Shown here piece after piece: positions 4,432 through 62,828 of a stretch of 64,000 nt of DNA. The position numbers and the translations under genes were made by a program. Every line of letters begins with the position of its first letter. Position 1 is the first letter of the stretch. A model generated the notes under the pieces. That model searched no databases, was not told the DNA's origin, and saw only the letters and a list, made by a program, of their open reading frames with translations. The DNA comes from an uncultured delta proteobacterium (GTDB taxonomy: Bacteria > Myxococcota_A > Polyangia > Fen-1088). The stretch is from the NCBI GenBank assembly GCA_963767925.1, contig CAVYGB010000002.1:1088001-1152000 (forward strand). The letters run 5' to 3'.

Positions 4432-4593
4432 CGCTGGGGTTGATTTGGAACGGCCCGAGCGCGGCAGTCCTGAGCCGCTCCTTTTGTCGCCTCCTAAGAG
4501 CAAGCCGCAGAAACCTGTGAAAATCTGCGGTGGCCTTGGACGTGAGATGCGGAGATCGAGACGCGTGGTCGTGTGCGAGCCCGTGTTCGTGTT

Positions 4594-6618
4594 GTCGGGT
4601 AGCCCGAGGCAGTTACCCACCCCGGGCCCCCACCGGAACCGGACAAGGAGATTTCCACCATCCGGCTCTTCCGCCGAGACGTCTCACGTCAGCTTTGCCC
4701 AGAGCTGAACTTTCAGCCGTGGGCGCGGCAGCGGGAATGCTCGAAGAAGGTCCCCGAAGCGCTGCCAGTTCAGGCGCGTGCGGTTGCTCCGGCGTCGCAG
4801 CCACCGGTACCAGATTCTCTCCGCGGCCCTCACGAGCCGGGAAATGCAGGCCAGGTTGCCGTTGACGCCGAAGTAGTTGATATGTCCGCTGATGCGCCTG
4901 CAGAGCGAGGCGTGCTGCTCCTTGACCGGCTCGTGTCGGTGGCGCCGACAGAAGTCGTTGATGGCTTGCTTGGCCCTCTGGAGCCTCGCCTTTCGGGTTT
5001 TGAAGTTCTGCCCCCAGTGTCCCTTCCGGGTCTTCTGCCACAAGAGCGTGAAACCCAGAAAGTCGAAGCTTCCCGGTCCCTTGCCTCCATCGTGCCGTGA
5101 TGACGGCCTTTTGAAGGGCACGAGCCGTGTCTTCTCTGGATGCAGTCGCAGGCCGTTCTCCGCCATCCGCTGTCGCAGCATCGCCATCACCATCTCGGCC
5201 TCTTCGGGTCGCTCGAAGCCGATGACCAGGTCGTCCGCGTACCTGACGAGGCAGGTTTTGCCTTGCAGCCGCGGCCTGACCTGTCGGTCGAGCCACACGT
5301 CCAGGACGTGGTGCAGGTAGATGTTGCCCAGCATTGGCGAAAGCACCGACCCTTGTGCCGTACCCACGTCCGGCTCGGTGTAATCCTCGCCGTCGAGCAC
5401 TCCCACGTGGAGGCACTTGCCCACGAGTCGCATGAACGACTCGTCGTTCACCCGCAGCCGGAGCATCTCCATCAGCTTTTTGCGGTCGATGCTGTCGAAG
5501 AAGGACTCTATGTCAGCCTCCAGCACCACGTTCACTTCGCCTCGCATGCACGCCGCGTTCAGGGTCCGCAGCGCATCGTGCGCGCTTCTTCCGGGTCGGA
5601 AGCCATACGAGCAGTCCAGAAAGTCCTGTTCGTAGATAGCTCCCAGCACCATCGTCAGCGCGTTTTGCACGACTTTGTCCTCAATGGTCGAGATGCCGAT
5701 CGGACGCGTTTTCCCCGGGGCTTTCGGGATGTGCACCCGCCGAATCGGTTGGTGGCGATATCGCACCTCCTTCATCCGCGTGTGCAGCCCCCGGATGTTG
5801 TCATCCAGGTGCGCTCCGTACTGCTCCTTGGTCACCCCATCGACGCCCACCGCCGCATCCTTGCGGATGCGGCCGAACGCCTCCTTCATCAGCTCCTCGT
5901 CCATCAGGTATGCCAGCGCGAGCAACCGGGCTTCGGGTTCCCGTTTCGCTCTCTCCGCTACCTTCATCAGTTTCGGTGACAGGTTCGTCGACGTCTTGGC
6001 GCCGCTCATGTTCCCCCTCTGAAGTTCGTCTCGACACGGGCCCCCTTTGCTCGGCCGGGTCCGGGTGCCTTCCGTTCCCCGACGTCTTCGCTCTTATTGG
6101 GCCCTCCGACGCCTCGCCTTCTTCAGCCGCCGCTCCGGTCGTCCCTCGCTGCGCGGCCCACCTCGGTCGGGCGCTTCTTCTGTACCGGCCGTCGGTGCAC
6201 CCTCGACCCACGGCGCGTCGGAGATTCTTGGGCAGGCTCCCCGTTTGGCCTGAGTTGCCCGAGGAAGGGCGAGGCTCTCCCAGGTTGCTGGGTCGTCCTC
6301 TTGATACGTGCCGCGGTCCGAGACCCCGCCGAGCGCGCAGTCACCTGGCCCTTTATCGGTGACGGCGCTGCTGCCTTCAGAGAACACGAGCTCCTGGGCG
6401 CTCGGGAACCAACAGTTTCGAGGCTGTACTCACGCGGCCCGCGTCCTTGCGTGCCTACGCATCATCCGGTGACATCGCTGCCCCCGAAGCAAGGCTCGCT
6501 ACCGGCCTGCCGGGCTCGGCTCTTGCCGGGCGGGTTTCACACCCGCTGGACGACGATTCGGAATTTCATGAATCACCGCATGATTCAGTCCTTTCCGACC
6601 AGCCTTGCCTGGTCGCAC
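4594..6618 (-). mobile_element. Group II intron, full length (bacterial class E/F-like)
   Basis: 5' end GTGCGAC at 6618; domain V GAGCCGGATGGTGGAAATCTCCTTGTCCGGTTC; domain VI with bulged A ending ..CTACCCGAC at 4594; RT ORF inside; EBS1 CGTGTT (6383-6388) matches the 5' exon end AACACG. Confidence 0.93.
4684..6009 (-). CDS. ltrA: Group II intron reverse transcriptase/maturase (no endonuclease domain)
   Basis: AVGVDG, RRVHIPK, RPIGI, SYGFRPGRSAHDA, ADIESFFD, GTAQGSVLSP, RYADD, FDFLGF, then domain X; 441 aa with no HNH. Confidence 0.95.
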   Translation of the reverse strand: MSGAKTSTNLSPKLMKVAERAKREPEARLLALAYLMDEELMKEAFGRIRKDAAVGVDGVTKEQYGAHLDDNIRGLHTRMKEVRYRHQPIRRVHIPKAPGKTRPIGISTIEDKVVQNALTMVLGAIYEQDFLDCSYGFRPGRSAHDALRTLNAACMRGEVNVVLEADIESFFDSIDRKKLMEMLRLRVNDESFMRLVGKCLHVGVLDGEDYTEPDVGTAQGSVLSPMLGNIYLHHVLDVWLDRQVRPRLQGKTCLVRYADDLVIGFERPEEAEMVMAMLRQRMAENGLRLHPEKTRLVPFKRPSSRHDGGKGPGSFDFLGFTLLWQKTRKGHWGQNFKTRKARLQRAKQAINDFCRRHRHEPVKEQHASLCRRISGHINYFGVNGNLACISRLVRAAERIWYRWLRRRSNRTRLNWQRFGDLLRAFPLPRPRLKVQLWAKLT

Positions 6619-6823
6619 CGTGTTCGTGTTCGTGTGAGACGAGCGGCTAGCGGTTGGCGGTTCTCGTGCCAGAAATTTCGCTAGCCGAGGCCCGCGAGCC
6701 GAGACACGCGTACCACCCACGAACTCGAACACGAACACGCGCTCGACCACGCGCTCGACCACGACCACGGCACGACCACGCGCTCGACCACGCGCTCGAC
6801 CACGACCACGGCACGACCACGAC
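6619..6823. repeat. Inverted hexamer microsatellite arrays (CGTGTT-type vs AACACG/ACCACG/CGCTCG-type)
   Basis: (CGTGTT)n at 6619-6636, central inverted pair CGGCTAGCG (6644-6652)/CGCTAGCCG (6679-6687), opposite-sense array 6718-6823 including a 41-bp tandem duplication (6736-6817). Confidence 0.85.
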
Positions 6824-6837
6824 AGCCGCGGCAGTGA

Positions 6838-7244
6838 TCAGGGCTGGTGGCGGTGCATGCCGGCGAGCCGGGTGAGCATCGCGCACAGGCGGTCGAGCAG
6901 AGACATCACCGCGTCGACCTCGGGATCGGGCGCAAGGCGAAGGATTGCGACGGCCTCCAGCGCGGCTGCAGCTTCGGACACTTCACCTCTGGCGGTGCGG
7001 AACCGTGAGATCCTATCGGCGCCCGTTCGGCTGGATGCCTCGGCGATGCCCAGGTATGCCGACAACAGCGGGGGGGGCGGGCGGCATGCCCCCGCCGTTA
7101 CAGCGCGCGCCGAAGCTGGTCCTGTAACGTCGCATACCCGCGTGGCATTCTCCGCGCAAGAGCGTCGCCCAAGCGTAGAGCATCGCGGGCCACGCAGAAA
7201 GCGTCGAGCCGATGATGGTCAAAGCTGCGGGGGCCCGGCGACAT
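6838..7244 (-). pseudogene. Four-helix-bundle protein (23S IVS-protein/Avd-like), disrupted by a 35-bp insertion
   Basis: MSPGPRSFDHHRLDAFCVA...LQDQLRRAL | LSAYLGIAEASSR..DRISRFRTARGEVSEAAAALE...LCAMLTRL; removing 7071-7105 restores one frame. Confidence 0.85.
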
Positions 7245-7501
7245 AACCAAGTTATCGGCGGGGTTGGCGCTTGGTTGCGCCCGACCAGACCAGCGGCCGG
7301 GACATGCAGGGCTGCCGCCGACGGTGCGCGAGTACCAATCCAAGCGAAAATTTTCCGAGCCCGTCAGGCCGTGATCTCTACTGTCCATGACGGCACAATT
7401 CGAAGACATCCCCGAAGAGGTTTGGGAACGCACGCGCGTTTGGATTCCCAAGCGAGCACGCAGTCCCAAAGGCGGCCGACCACCGATCGGACGGACAGAA
7501 C

Positions 7502-7540
7502 AAAAAAAAGGAAGGCGGCCACCCCGCTGGGTGACCGCCT
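7502..7540 (-). terminator. Rho-independent terminator of the SOD-like gene
   Basis: AGGCGGTCACC-loop-GGTGGCCGCCT followed by TCC-T8 on the minus strand. Confidence 0.85.
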
Positions 7541-7562
7541 GTTTGTCGAGCTGAGTGGATGA

Positions 7563-59417: not shown

Positions 59418-60692
59418 GTGCGCCGTATTTCCAAGCTCGCGTGGGTCCTGGGGTTTGCTCTGGTTGGTGGCGGCTGCCGGGCGAACGGCGGCGGCGAGAG
59501 CCGCGTCCCTTCTGCGCCGGTCGCCGCGCCGAGCGCACCGGACACCGCCCCGGCCGCGCCACCTCCCCTGCCGCCGATGTCCTGCCGGCCCGACCCGACG
59601 CGCCCGCTGACCGTGGAGCCGGGGCGCGCCATCCACTGCGCCATCGACGTCGGCAGCCGCAACGTGAAGCTGGTCGTCAGCTCGGTCGTCGAAGGCCGCC
59701 CCACAAGCTTGCAGAACGAGCGGCAGTGCCGGGTGCGGCTGCAGCTCGCCGACAAGACCTACGACGCCCGCACCGGCAGCGCCCGGCCGCTGTCCCCCGC
59801 CGACCAGACCGCGCTCGCCACCCTGTTTCGCACCTACCGCACCCAGTGCGAGACCGACGGCGGCCGCCTGCACGGCGCCGTCGCCACCGAGTGGGCCCGC
59901 CGCGCCCCCAACGCCCAGGCGGTCAAGCGCGCCCTCGAAGAGGAGACGGGCGTGCGCATGGACATCCTCGACCGCGCCGCCGAGGTCCGCTACGGCTACC
60001 TCGCCGCCACCCGCGGCCTGCGCGGCCGGATGGTCCTCGACTTCGGCAGCCGCAGCCTGCAGCTCGCCTTATGGCCGCGCGGCCTGCCAGCGCCCGAAGG
60101 GGTCAGCGCCCAGCTCGGCATCGATGAGGCCGGCGATCGCTACTTCGCGCCGGCCGCCGCCCGCACCTACGCCGAGGGCCGCCGCGCGCTCGAGCCGGTG
60201 CTGCGCGCGGCCCTGGCCCCCGTGCTGGCGAGCGCCCGCACGGGCCTGCGCAAGAAGGTCCTGGCCCCCGAGCTGGTCTCCCTCGGCGAAAACGGCGACC
60301 TGGCCCTGGCCGTCGCCGGCAAGCTGTGGAGCGGCTCGCCCGTGCGGCCGGTGAGCGAGAGCGCCTACGCCTCGGCGGTGAAGGCCTGGAGCCTGCAGGC
60401 CGACCCCCGCTACGGCAAGGTCACCGCCGTCCTCACCGCCGCGCCCGTCCGGGCCATCGAGCGCGCGCTGGAAGTCAACCAGGGTCTGTTCGACGAGCTC
60501 CGCAGCCCCAACCTGAGGCGGGCCTACGGCAACAAGCTGCTGGTCTTCCCGGTGCTGGCCCGCCTGCTCGAGCAGGAGCTGGGCATCACCACCATCGTGC
60601 TGGTCCCGCAAGAGATGGCCGACGGCTTCCTGATCGACAGCGCAGCCACCAGCACCCCCGACGCCGGCCCCCGCCCCACCGTCGCGCCCTAG
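59418..60692 (+). CDS. Ppx/GppA (ASKHA) family protein with lipoprotein signal
   Basis: LVGGGC lipobox; IDVGSRNVK, VATEWARRAPN, ILDRAAEVRYGY, LDFGSRSLQ. Confidence 0.8.
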   Translation: MRRISKLAWVLGFALVGGGCRANGGGESRVPSAPVAAPSAPDTAPAAPPPLPPMSCRPDPTRPLTVEPGRAIHCAIDVGSRNVKLVVSSVVEGRPTSLQNERQCRVRLQLADKTYDARTGSARPLSPADQTALATLFRTYRTQCETDGGRLHGAVATEWARRAPNAQAVKRALEEETGVRMDILDRAAEVRYGYLAATRGLRGRMVLDFGSRSLQLALWPRGLPAPEGVSAQLGIDEAGDRYFAPAAARTYAEGRRALEPVLRAALAPVLASARTGLRKKVLAPELVSLGENGDLALAVAGKLWSGSPVRPVSESAYASAVKAWSLQADPRYGKVTAVLTAAPVRAIERALEVNQGLFDELRSPNLRRAYGNKLLVFPVLARLLEQELGITTIVLVPQEMADGFLIDSAATSTPDAGPRPTVAP

Positions 60693-60750
60693 CCGGGATT
60701 ATTCACCAGCGGGGCGCCGCCGTCGAGACGCCGCGAACAGGGTGTCTGGC

Positions 60751-60795
60751 CCCGATTCGTTCCCGTTCCCGTTCCCGTTCCCGTTCCCGGACCCG
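60751..60795. repeat. Left inverted repeat, (CGTTCC)5 core
   Basis: Reverse complement of 62725-62768 with one indel. Confidence 0.9.
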
Positions 60796-60913
60796 TGCCC
60801 CGTACCCGCAACCTTAGAGCCAGCCGCTGAAACCTGTGGAGAATTTGCGCCGATGGGCGAAACGAGGTATCGAGGCCGGGACGCGTGCTCGTGGGCGTGT
60901 TCGAGCCCGTGTT

Positions 60914-62388
60914 GTCGGGTAGCCCGGGGCAGTTACCCACCCCGGGCCCCCACCGGAACCGGACAAGGAGATTTCCACCATCCGGCTCTTCCGCCGAGAC
61001 GTCTCACGTCAGCTTTGCCCAGAGCTGAACTTTCAGCCGTGGGCGCGGCAGCGGGAATGCTCGAAGAAGGTCCCCGAAGCGCTGCCAGTTCAGGCGCGTG
61101 CGGTTGCTCCGGCGTCGCAGCCACCGGTACCAGATTCTCTCCGCGGCCCTCACGAGCCGGGAAATGCAGGCCAGGTTGCCGTTGACGCCGAAGTAGTTGA
61201 TATGTCCGCTGATGCGCCTGCAGAGCGAGGCGTGCTGCTCCTTGACCGGCTCGTGTCGGTGGCGCCGACAGAAGTCGTTGATGGCTTGCTTGGCCCTCTG
61301 GAGCCTCGCCTTTCGGGTTTTGAAGTTCTGCCCCCAGTGTCCCTTCCGGGTCTTCTGCCACAAGAGCGTGAAACCCAGAAAGTCGAAGCTTCCCGGTCCC
61401 TTGCCTCCATCGTGCCGTGATGACGGCCTTTTGAAGGGCACGAGCCGTGTCTTCTCTGGATGCAGTCGCAGGCCGTTCTCCGCCATCCGCTGTCGCAGCA
61501 TCGCCATCACCATCTCGGCCTCTTCGGGTCGCTCGAAGCCGATGACCAGGTCGTCCGCGTACCTGACGAGGCAGGTTTTGCCTTGCAGCCGCGGCCTGAC
61601 CTGTCGGTCGAGCCACACGTCCAGGACGTGGTGCAGGTAGATGTTGCCCAGCATTGGCGAAAGCACCGACCCTTGTGCCGTACCCACGTCCGGCTCGGTG
61701 TAATCCTCGCCGTCGAGCACTCCCACGTGGAGGCACTTGCCCACGAGTCGCATGAACGACTCGTCGTTCACCCGCAGCCGGAGCATCTCCATCAGCTTTT
61801 TGCGGTCGATGCTGTCGAAGAAGGACTCTATGTCAGCCTCCAGCACCACGTTCACTTCGCCTCGCATGCACGCCGCGTTCAGGGTCCGCAGCGCATCGTG
61901 CGCGCTTCTTCCGGGTCGGAAGCCATACGAGCAGTCCAGAAAGTCCTGTTCGTAGATAGCTCCCAGCACCATCGTCAGCGCGTTTTGCACGACTTTGTCC
62001 TCAATGGTCGAGATGCCGATCGGACGCGTTTTCCCCGGGGCTTTCGGGATGTGCACCCGCCGAATCGGTTGGTGGCGATATCGCACCTCCTTCATCCGCG
62101 TGTGCAGCCCCCGGATGTTGTCATCCAGGTGCGCTCCGTACTGCTCCTTGGTCACCCCATCGACGCCCACCGCCGCATCCTTGCGGATGCGGCCGAACGC
62201 CTCCTTCATCAGCTCCTCGTCCATCAGGTATGCCAGCGCGAGCAACCGGGCTTCGGGTTCCCGTTTCGCTCTCTCCGCTACCTTCATCAGTTTCGGTGAC
62301 AGGTTCGTCGACGTCTTGGCGCCGCTCATGTTCCCCCTCTGAAGTTCGTCTCGACACGGGCCCCCTTTGCTCGGCCGGGTCCGGGTGC
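60914..62388 (-). mobile_element. Group II intron, 5'-truncated copy
   Basis: Matches 4594-6068 (offset 56320); one difference noticed, in domain VI (60927 vs 4607); lacks the 5' 550 nt. Confidence 0.93.
61004..62329 (-). CDS. ltrA: Group II intron reverse transcriptase/maturase (same protein as copy 1)
   Basis: Translation matches 4684-6009; YADD. Confidence 0.93.
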   Translation of the reverse strand: MSGAKTSTNLSPKLMKVAERAKREPEARLLALAYLMDEELMKEAFGRIRKDAAVGVDGVTKEQYGAHLDDNIRGLHTRMKEVRYRHQPIRRVHIPKAPGKTRPIGISTIEDKVVQNALTMVLGAIYEQDFLDCSYGFRPGRSAHDALRTLNAACMRGEVNVVLEADIESFFDSIDRKKLMEMLRLRVNDESFMRLVGKCLHVGVLDGEDYTEPDVGTAQGSVLSPMLGNIYLHHVLDVWLDRQVRPRLQGKTCLVRYADDLVIGFERPEEAEMVMAMLRQRMAENGLRLHPEKTRLVPFKRPSSRHDGGKGPGSFDFLGFTLLWQKTRKGHWGQNFKTRKARLQRAKQAINDFCRRHRHEPVKEQHASLCRRISGHINYFGVNGNLACISRLVRAAERIWYRWLRRRSNRTRLNWQRFGDLLRAFPLPRPRLKVQLWAKLT

Positions 62389-62828
62389 AGGCGGGAAGCG
62401 AGTTCGTCGCCAAGGCGGACGACATCGTGGAGCAGCTGCCGCGTGGACGAGCCTACCTGGCGGACCAACTGCAGCGCGCGGCGACCTCGGTGCCGCTCAA
62501 CGTGGCCGAGGGGGCCGGGGAATTCGGCAGGAAGGACAAGGCGCGCTTCTACCGAATGGCACTGCGGTCGGCGACGGAGTGCGCTGCACTACTGGATGTC
62601 TGCCGCAAGGTGAAGCTCAGCGACGAAGCTACGTTGGGGGCAGGACGCGATCTTCTACTGCGCATCGTCTCGATGCTGACGAAGATGGCGAAGTCGCCCA
62701 TGCGTGGGCCCCAGTCCGAAAATCCGGGTCCGGGAACGGGAACGGGAACGGGAACGGGAACGATCGGGAACACGGCGCCGGTGGCCGCGCGACCGCCAGC
62801 GTTGCCGCCTGATGATAGTCCCGGCTAG
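62388..62828 (+). pseudogene. Four-helix-bundle protein (23S IVS-protein/Avd-like), 5'-truncated
   Basis: LPRGRAYLADQLQRAATSVPLNVAEGAGE...KARFYRMALRSATECAALLD...IVSMLTKM; the native N-terminus is replaced by intron sequence. Confidence 0.85.
62725..62768. repeat. Right inverted repeat, (GGAACG)5 core
   Basis: CGGGTCCG(GGAACG)5ATCGGG. Confidence 0.9.

Follow-up and report, generated by a model that had tools for sequence, protein, structure and literature searches.

The stretch of DNA analysed here, hereafter called the window, comprises 64,000 nucleotides (nt) from the genome of an uncultured delta proteobacterium (GTDB lineage Bacteria; Myxococcota_A; Polyangia; Fen-1088; contig CAVYGB010000002.1 of assembly GCA_963767925.1), and the subject of this analysis is a group II intron at positions 4594-6618 together with the insertion sequence (IS) in which it resides. 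A preliminary description, made from the letters of the window, had already recognised a group II intron, and this was borne out by two Rfam models with scores above their cut-offs. The core of domain I, including the hairpin with exon-binding site 1 (EBS1), was located at 6314-6539 (group-II-D1D4-6, RF02005; 118.3 bits, cut-off 49) and domains V and VI at 4594-4670 (RF00029; 42.0 bits, cut-off 40), both on the minus strand like the intron itself. The intron is complete, measures 2025 nt and runs from GUGCGAC at 6618 to CUACCCGAC at 4594; its termini, GUGCG at 6618 and GAC at 4594, conform to the GUGYG...AY ends of bacterial mobile group II introns, and a full copy elsewhere in the genome is 97.4% identical. 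An open reading frame at 4684-6009 (minus strand) encodes the reverse transcriptase (RT)/maturase of 441 amino acids (aa), which matched RVT_1 in Pfam and TIGR04416 (337.7 bits, cut-off 300) and holds the YADD motif of RTs within RYADDLV. Judged by TIGR04416, it is an ordinary group II maturase-RT. Its C-terminus extends about 35 aa past the end of the TIGR04416 match, and it is devoid of an endonuclease domain, the Pfam scan of the protein having reported RVT_1 only and no HNH domain.

Removal of the intron rejoins, on the minus strand, a continuous array of CACGNN hexamers, CACACG AACACG AACACG / AACACG AACACG GGCTCG CACACG ACCACG, in which the slash marks the insertion point. The array had been noticed in the preliminary description, and it stands: the rejoined 60 nt gave a period-6 self-match of 0.63, whereas the junctions of 49 related introns reached 0.46 at most and 0.26 in the median. 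The three hexamers of the 5′ exon lie at 6619-6636, the last of them (6619-6624) being the intron-binding site 1 (IBS1), while those of the 3′ exon, with a final CG, occupy 4562-4593. When the rejoined exons were folded as DNA, the 3′ exon formed the remainder of the 3′ arm of a hairpin, with a loop region at 6637-6716 that contains an inner GGCTAGCG/CGCTAGCC stem, and with a 5′ arm at 6717-6823 that is an array of CGTGNN hexamers and contains a 41-nt tandem duplication (Tandem Repeats Finder; all features on the minus strand). An empty copy of this hairpin folded at -84.9 kcal/mol (z = -9.9), and the insertion point falls within the paired 3′ arm, between two hexamer units. In agreement with the earlier view that the array is one arm of an inverted repeat downstream of a four-helix-bundle (4HB) gene, a PF05635 frame was found next to the hairpin fold at 6838-7244 on the minus strand. 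This gene, 4HB-A, is a pseudogene here, as judged by the PF05635 match to its C-terminal part and by alignment to intact copies in the genome: it has retained a (GC)n run, but is broken by an insertion of about 35 nt at 7065-7099 that contains TAA and is seen in this copy only. Contigs of two public runs skip the insertion, joining 7064 to 7100. The inserted segment has an internal GC-rich palindrome, and a 32-nt exact match to it is present at G000:C8:3038275-3038306 (blastn-short; G000 denotes the source genome of 9.3 Mb).

The hairpin and the 4HB gene belong to one insertion sequence, which we named IS-A. Its right terminal inverted repeat (TIR; ...CACAGGTTTCTGCGGCTTGCTC) was located at 4498-4520 on the minus strand, followed by TTA at 4495-4497, and a remnant of the 5′ end of the transposase gene orfA at 7387-7489 on the plus strand (open reading frame 7387-7554). 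BLAST aligned 7489 to 6771 with IS-A nt 783-1462; the window copy as a whole represents IS-A nt 783-1663, is split by the intron between nt 1563 and 1564, and lacks the left end and most of the transposase. A genome search with the 23-nt motif ending ...GGCTGGCTCT, allowing up to 4 mismatches, yielded 42 occurrences, 15 of them left and 27 right ends, from which the TIR length is about 22 nt. Fourteen elements of 320-3232 bp were bounded by paired TIRs, and TWA was duplicated in 11 of them. In four of the 14, of about 1.6 kb, a two-frame transposase is accompanied on the opposite strand by a PF05635 4HB gene and then by a hairpin that spans about 200 nt and consists of CGTGNN/CACGNN hexamers; G000:C2:283915-285515 is an example of a TIR-bounded element, and in derivatives of 320-1216 bp either the transposase or the 4HB gene is missing, or the two together. 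The transposase matched DUF4096 and DDE_Tnp_1, and on its DDE part the IS5 family model NF033580 (134.7 bits, cut-off 110). With its DDE transposase, TIRs and 3-bp target duplication, IS-A can be assigned by sequence to the IS5 family. The 4HB gene neighbours the intron because it is part of IS-A.

The intron carries a sequence complementary to its target. EBS1, CGUGUU, was located at 6383-6388 (minus strand): in the Rfam alignment, CGTGTT reads from 6388 to 6383 within the 8-nt loop of a GGAG/CUCU hairpin, directly 5′ of GAAGGCAGCA, and it forms six of six possible pairs with the exon unit AACACG. An alignment of domain I with relatives of the same taxonomic order revealed compensatory changes of EBS1 and IBS1 in 7 aligned introns, with the pairs CGUGCU/AGCACG, UGUUC/GAACA, UUUUC/GGAAA, CAUAGG/CUUAUG, GGAGAC/GUCUUC and UAACCG/CGGUUA. 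In a wider sample, composed of 66 relatives from public metagenome-assembled genomes (MAGs) with a callable 5′ boundary, a fully pairing hexamer was present at intron nt 191-300 in 48, mostly at nt 220-235, whereas swapping of the exon hexamers among the 66 introns gave full pairing in 22% on average and in 36% at most. The assignment of CGTGTT to EBS1 and its complementarity to the repeat unit, both proposed at the outset, were confirmed by these results. A candidate EBS2, UGUU, lies directly after a conserved CGAAA at 6411-6414 (minus strand), the position at which relatives show 5-bp EBS2 matches; such matches after CGAAA were seen in 33 of 46 relatives against 27.3 ± 2.6 in permuted sets. 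It had further been suggested that the U preceding EBS1 pairs with the A at exon position +1, a delta-delta′ contact of the IIA style. The base 5′ of EBS1 is, however, T in most relatives regardless of the +1 exon base, and it pairs with that base in 11 of 30 distinct cases where 13.5 were expected. Since this U is nearly invariant whatever the +1 base, we found no evidence of a delta-delta′ contact.

By blastn, the genome contains two full copies of the intron, three copies truncated at the 5′ end, which begin at intron nt 551, 1527 and 1826, and one 5′ stub of 58 nt. The second full copy, at C2:1846951-1848979, is the one with 97.4% identity to the window copy, whereas the flanks of the two introns are just 59.8% (5′) and 68.4% (3′) identical, because they lie in two subfamilies of IS-A. 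The truncated copy that begins at nt 551 is also located in the window; it shows 99.9% identity to the first intron, although its flank is of the other subfamily. The stub (G000:C2:504740-504797) lies in the other arm of the hairpin and on the complementary strand, where its site, AACTCG, has one mismatch to EBS1; unrelated DNA follows it. Its position in the opposite arm and strand implies that the mirror-image site of the palindrome has been used as well. Furthermore, one 3′ fragment of 200 nt was found outside IS-A. Together, the near-identical introns in diverged flanks, the stub and the fragment outside IS-A point to several independent insertions.

Most copies of IS-A are nonetheless free of the intron: among 23 right arms recognised by a parsing pattern, which takes in neither the window copy nor the truncated copies, 22 were empty. 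The commonest empty arm, present in 9 copies, reads CACACG AACTCG AACACG AACACG CGCTCG AACACG CCCACG, and each AACACG unit in it is either preceded by AACTCG or has C next. Both full introns, in contrast, are inserted at CACACG AACACG AACACG / A. From this occupancy table it would appear that an AACTCG unit ahead of the site, or a C behind it, is what spares most IS-A copies from insertion. The arrays had been thought to offer many in-register target sites, a claim that did not hold, as most arrays are without a full match and in all 9.3 Mb the 13-mer AACACGAACACG/A was found unoccupied at just 3 sites, two of them in IS-A and the third outside it.

We therefore consider it very probable that positions 4594-6618 represent a mobile endonuclease-less group II intron that has its natural homing site inside another mobile element, IS-A. 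In the mechanism that we propose, the intron RNA would select its site by base pairing, for which the pairing of EBS1 CGUGUU with AACACG has been shown; the weak EBS2 UGUU probably pairs in addition with AACA of the preceding unit. The intron would then reverse-splice between two hexamer units in the 3′ arm of the hairpin and, being without an endonuclease, presumably prime from DNA of the replication fork, as is the case in the family of the intron RmInt1. Because the intron lies in the sense orientation of the 4HB transcript, it could splice out again.

Several points weigh against such an active intron. Splicing and mobility would follow from the patterns of the copies and were not observed, and the public reads were indecisive in this respect: one RNA run among them contained short pieces with 90-95% identity, all within the RT gene and most likely from other introns, while no contig joining 4593 to 6619 was present among the soil-metagenome contigs of public runs (best share 0.36), which is uninformative on splicing or on empty alleles. 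The EBS2 pairing in the window intron seems weak, with just 4 bp to exon positions -12 to -9 (AACA), and the family-wide EBS2 signal is modest. Two IS-A arrays and the one non-IS site with the complete 13-mer remain empty, so that pairing alone does not explain the occupancy. The target is almost wholly base-paired in the predicted hairpin, and EBS pairing should therefore be hindered unless the DNA is unwound. Lastly, judged by GC skew, the orientation of the intron agrees with the expected strand bias at 1.09-1.15 Mb and conflicts with it at 0.50 Mb, with an ambiguous outcome at 1.85 Mb; as GC skew is too noisy in this assembly of 13 contigs, no conclusion on strand bias can be drawn.

Other points of this kind bear on the idea that the intron is no longer mobile and that its copies were multiplied passively, by transposition of IS-A or by recombination between IS-A copies. 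The RT frame is intact in the window copy only; in the other full copy, 1 nt has been inserted at nt 676. Every 3′ exon that bears an intron reads GGCTCG at the point where CGCTCG is found in most empty copies, and neither of the two full copies has the AACTCG unit. In addition, one full copy is located within a TIR-bounded element of 3232 bp with a TTA/TTA duplication, which indicates that IS-A can move with the intron inside. The shared GGCTCG and this element imply that some copies may have travelled with the IS, and some may likewise have spread by recombination. As an account of all copies, however, passive multiplication is unlikely, since it would have to accommodate near-identical introns in flanks with 60-68% identity, the 99.9% identical truncated copy in the flank of the other subfamily, the stub in the opposite arm and strand, and the 200-nt fragment outside IS-A. 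Aborted reverse transcription of retroelements leaves 5′-truncated copies, and the three truncated introns are of this form.

The position of the target in a very stable hairpin (z = -9.9) raised the alternative that the intron recognises the structure and that sequence is secondary, as with class C introns at terminators or attC sites. The closest relative of the window intron, in genome G008 of the same order (85.6% nt identity), could be taken in the same sense: it is inserted at ...TTTGAGCACG/GACCCC..., at the junction of the loop and the 3′ arm of a different long inverted repeat (z = -3.3). Among the predicted DNA structures at the sites of 47 relatives, 6 had z-scores of -3.3 or lower. 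The median over these 47 sites was just -0.9 (20 mononucleotide shuffles per site, a measure that has no matched control positions), and the lineage thus shows no general preference for structured DNA. Moreover, the window intron is inserted inside a paired arm and not downstream of a stem-loop, its EBS1 pairs over the full 6 bp and covaries, and its RNA matches the Rfam D1D4-6 model, with which the comparison was made. We consequently find recognition of the hairpin itself distinctly improbable, and homing by EBS1 pairing remains the account that we prefer.

The truncated copy in the window lies at 60914-62388 on the minus strand and consists of intron nt 551-2025; it lacks nt 1-550 and with them domains I-III (blastn). 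It adjoins, at 60814-60913 (minus strand), a 3′ exon together with the right end of a further IS-A copy, which is 98% identical to IS-A nt 1564-1663. This IS-A copy is inserted in a second element, IS-B, of which the left end with a (CGTTCC)7 array was located at 60686-60818 and the right end with a (CGGGAA)5 array at 62693-62826 (both plus strand; BLAST, Tandem Repeats Finder). Between them lies the 4HB gene of IS-B, 4HB-B, at 62388-62801 (plus strand; PF05635, 66.8 bits; 98.7% identical to other IS-B copies), which is truncated N-terminally at the junction with the intron fragment, starts from about codon 13 (BLAST span 62388-62693) and is on the strand opposite to the fragment. IS-B is a non-autonomous element of 1.43 kb in which a short piece of an IS1380-type transposase (DDE_Tnp_1_4) is left; it has an apparently intact 4HB gene of 124 aa and is bounded by inverted ends, about 110 nt long, with (CGTTCC)n/(GGGAAC)n arrays. 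Full copies were found at C2:1078119-1079574, C2:1552745-1554170 (locus L032, nt 1545-2970), C2:1805194-1806620 and C8:638760-640178 of G000. In the preliminary description this locus figured as a second copy of the intron with a homologous 3′ exon that again abuts a 4HB gene. The homologous exon and the adjoining PF05635 gene were both found, but the intron is truncated, and the gene lies on the opposite strand and represents another paralogue. A misassembly, named at the time as a possible objection, was not found: the locus is real, and nested IS elements would account for its junctions (BLAST). In the simplest history, an intron-bearing IS-A would have inserted into IS-B, after which everything from intron nt 550 up to and including the beginning of 4HB-B would have been deleted. 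What is left of the intron at this locus is a dead fragment.

PF05635 matches were found at 20 places in the genome, and 4HB genes of the PF05635/TIGR02436 kind occur beside repeat arrays or hairpins in IS-A, in IS-B and in a third element, IS-C. IS-C (G000:C6:352600-355700) has a 4HB gene of 130 aa directly upstream of a 475-aa ISNCY/IS5-like transposase, with GTGCACG-type arrays upstream; arrays of this type were also seen at about 8 further sites of the genome that have no 4HB gene. The 4HB-A gene of IS-A is intact in 2 of 21 copies, one of which lies at G000:C2 near 1,713,650. A 2-bp loss in its (GC)n run, causing a frameshift, is common to all four copies of IS-A that bear a transposase (G000:C2:285225, C8:2217239, C8:3084782 and C10:1776419), and the most recently active copies therefore do not seem to need the protein in cis. 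A literature search returned no paper describing 4HB genes inside IS elements; in PMC5524665, genes for a "four helix bundle protein" are merely listed between housekeeping genes.

The preliminary description had interpreted the locus as the product of an intron lineage that is specialised on the hexamer arrays of 4HB cassettes, possibly with a partnership of RT and 4HB protein resembling that of RT and Avd. Within the source genome, every hexamer-array insertion adjoins a 4HB gene or its remnant, and EBS1 is the complement of the repeat unit. The association with 4HB genes arises there from the fact that all targets are copies of a single IS5-family IS, which carries such a gene. To judge the lineage as a whole, we searched for related introns in other genomes. 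An RT with an E-value of 1e-60 or lower was present in 20 of the 89 genomes of the order, the source genome included, and a scan of one genome per species yielded 80 further related loci in MAGs of many phyla, with 46-66% aa identity. The boundaries of the related introns were called with nhmmer profiles of the intron ends, strict calling by motifs alone having succeeded for 8 of the 80. Of the 49 related introns for which 30 nt of flank were available on either side, none had a hexamer-periodic junction. The G008 intron occupies a non-repetitive site with the IBS1 AGCACG, other relatives of the order were found at TTTCCGCGGAAR/CG, and the nearest relatives lie in unrelated sequences, with no enrichment of arrays or 4HB genes in the flanks whose tabulation had been set as a check. 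A tblastn search of 106 related loci with the three 4HB proteins of the source genome as queries, which is not very sensitive, gave a single weak match (E = 0.006) with two stops in frame. As to the partnership with the RT, the 2 intact 4HB-A frames among 21 copies and the 4 seemingly intact copies of 4HB-B leave room for a protein acting in trans. Against it, neither the window copy nor any of the four IS-A copies with a transposase has an unbroken 4HB gene, no RT lies near the 4HB genes of the two further IS types in the genome, and the intron's RT is a standard group II maturase-RT. The flank table largely refutes the specialisation, and we regard this reading, including an Avd-like coupling, for which we found no support, as very improbable. 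Equally improbable would be the notion of a module, composed of 4HB gene and hairpin and taken up by no fewer than three unrelated IS families of this genome, in which an Avd-like protein supplied in trans from the few intact copies binds the hairpin and aids RT- or transposase-based mobility, so that the site choice of the intron would be no accident.

Two sets of observations from the survey concern arrays and targets of other kinds. Long, pure hexamer microsatellites exist outside IS-A in the source genome, namely (AGCACG)21 at G000:C10:325047-325178, (TCCACG)16 at C2:998189-998284 and (TGCTCG)8 at C2:1207958-1208009; AGCACG, the unit of the first, is also the IBS1 of the closest related intron, which sits in another genome. 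In a further genome of the order, a hairpin of the CGTGTT/AACACG type follows directly after the stop codon of a gene (L043, G076:C659, at about nt 1500-1700 of the locus) with neither an IS nor a 4HB gene beside it, which indicates that hexamer hairpins exist as free intergenic elements too. Among the relatives, a sub-lineage with 57-66% aa identity from MAGs of several phyla (L049, L052, L054 and L092, and with variants L051, L057 and L077) has the common target ...ATAGGA(A/G)AAACA/AGC...GTTTTC, which looks palindromic.

A milder and likewise speculative version of the notion of a 4HB-hairpin module is that the palindromic microsatellite may serve as a tunable landing pad, which would be switched as units are added or lost and as single bases vary, for instance to AACTCG before the site or C at +1, and would be available on either strand. 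What makes the locus useful is that one genome holds occupied, empty but matching, and empty mismatched versions of the same site, to which the mirror-image site on the opposite strand of the hairpin can be added. This amounts to a natural data set on the targeting of endonuclease-less introns, and the rules of targeting (EBS2, the +1 base, the hairpin and the direction of replication) are therefore directly testable in a homing assay. The window intron reveals neither a new kind of retroelement nor an RT/Avd partnership. The three IS elements of the IS5, IS1380 and ISNCY/IS5 types are, in addition, transposons that carry the unexplained "23S rRNA intervening-sequence" 4HB genes, one of which travels with a transposase.

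Compared with known systems, the locus resembles diversity-generating retroelements (DGRs), which combine Avd and an RT, in that a PF05635-family protein and an RT are encoded within 1 kb. It differs from them in its RT, which is of the group II maturase kind (TIGR04416), and in its 4HB gene, which is part of an IS and here a pseudogene. The TIGR04416 match and the interrupted 4HB-A ruled out a DGR, no search having been made for a pair of template and variable repeats. IS-A also departs from mobile insertion cassettes with 4HB genes, since its 4HB gene accompanies an apparently complete transposase instead of taking its place, and since its hairpin is downstream of the 4HB gene, does not enclose it and is at the same time the landing site of an intron. 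Class C (IIC) introns reportedly, according to Robart, Seo and Zimmerly in 2007, have the habit of inserting after intrinsic terminators. Their association with the attC sites of integrons is described in PMC7923331. The window intron shares with them the lack of an endonuclease and the association with stem-loop-forming DNA, but is inserted inside the 3′ arm, has a covarying EBS1 of 6 nt and matches the Rfam D1D4-6 model. Membership of class C was rejected, because such introns insert a few bases past a stem-loop and have a short IBS1, whereas here the site is in the paired arm and IBS1 measures 6 nt. More generally, the endonuclease-less classes (A, C, D, E and F/g1-g4) have no D/En after domain X, and this is also true of the window RT; PMC3552965 distinguishes these classes by their C-terminal signature and phylogeny. 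In a tblastn search against plasmids, rhizobial and other ltrA genes were the best matches with 43-47% identity (at most 46.6%), a result that assigns no class.

The closest counterpart is RmInt1 of Sinorhizobium meliloti, an endonuclease-less intron of bacterial class D (IIB3) with a homing site in ISRm2011-2, as described in PMC1802570, PMC8914252 and PMC4496777. Both introns encode an RT/maturase without DNA-binding or endonuclease domain, have their natural homing site within a multi-copy insertion sequence, select the target by EBS/IBS pairing and inhabit genomes with full, truncated and fragmentary copies next to many empty sites. They differ in that the host IS belongs here to another family, IS5, and that the site is a non-coding hairpin of hexamer arrays, whereas that of RmInt1 is in the body of its IS. 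In our analysis the window intron appears to work like RmInt1, a likeness in habit, class D placement aside. It adds a clear new example of a known habit, that of bacterial introns homing into insertion sequences.

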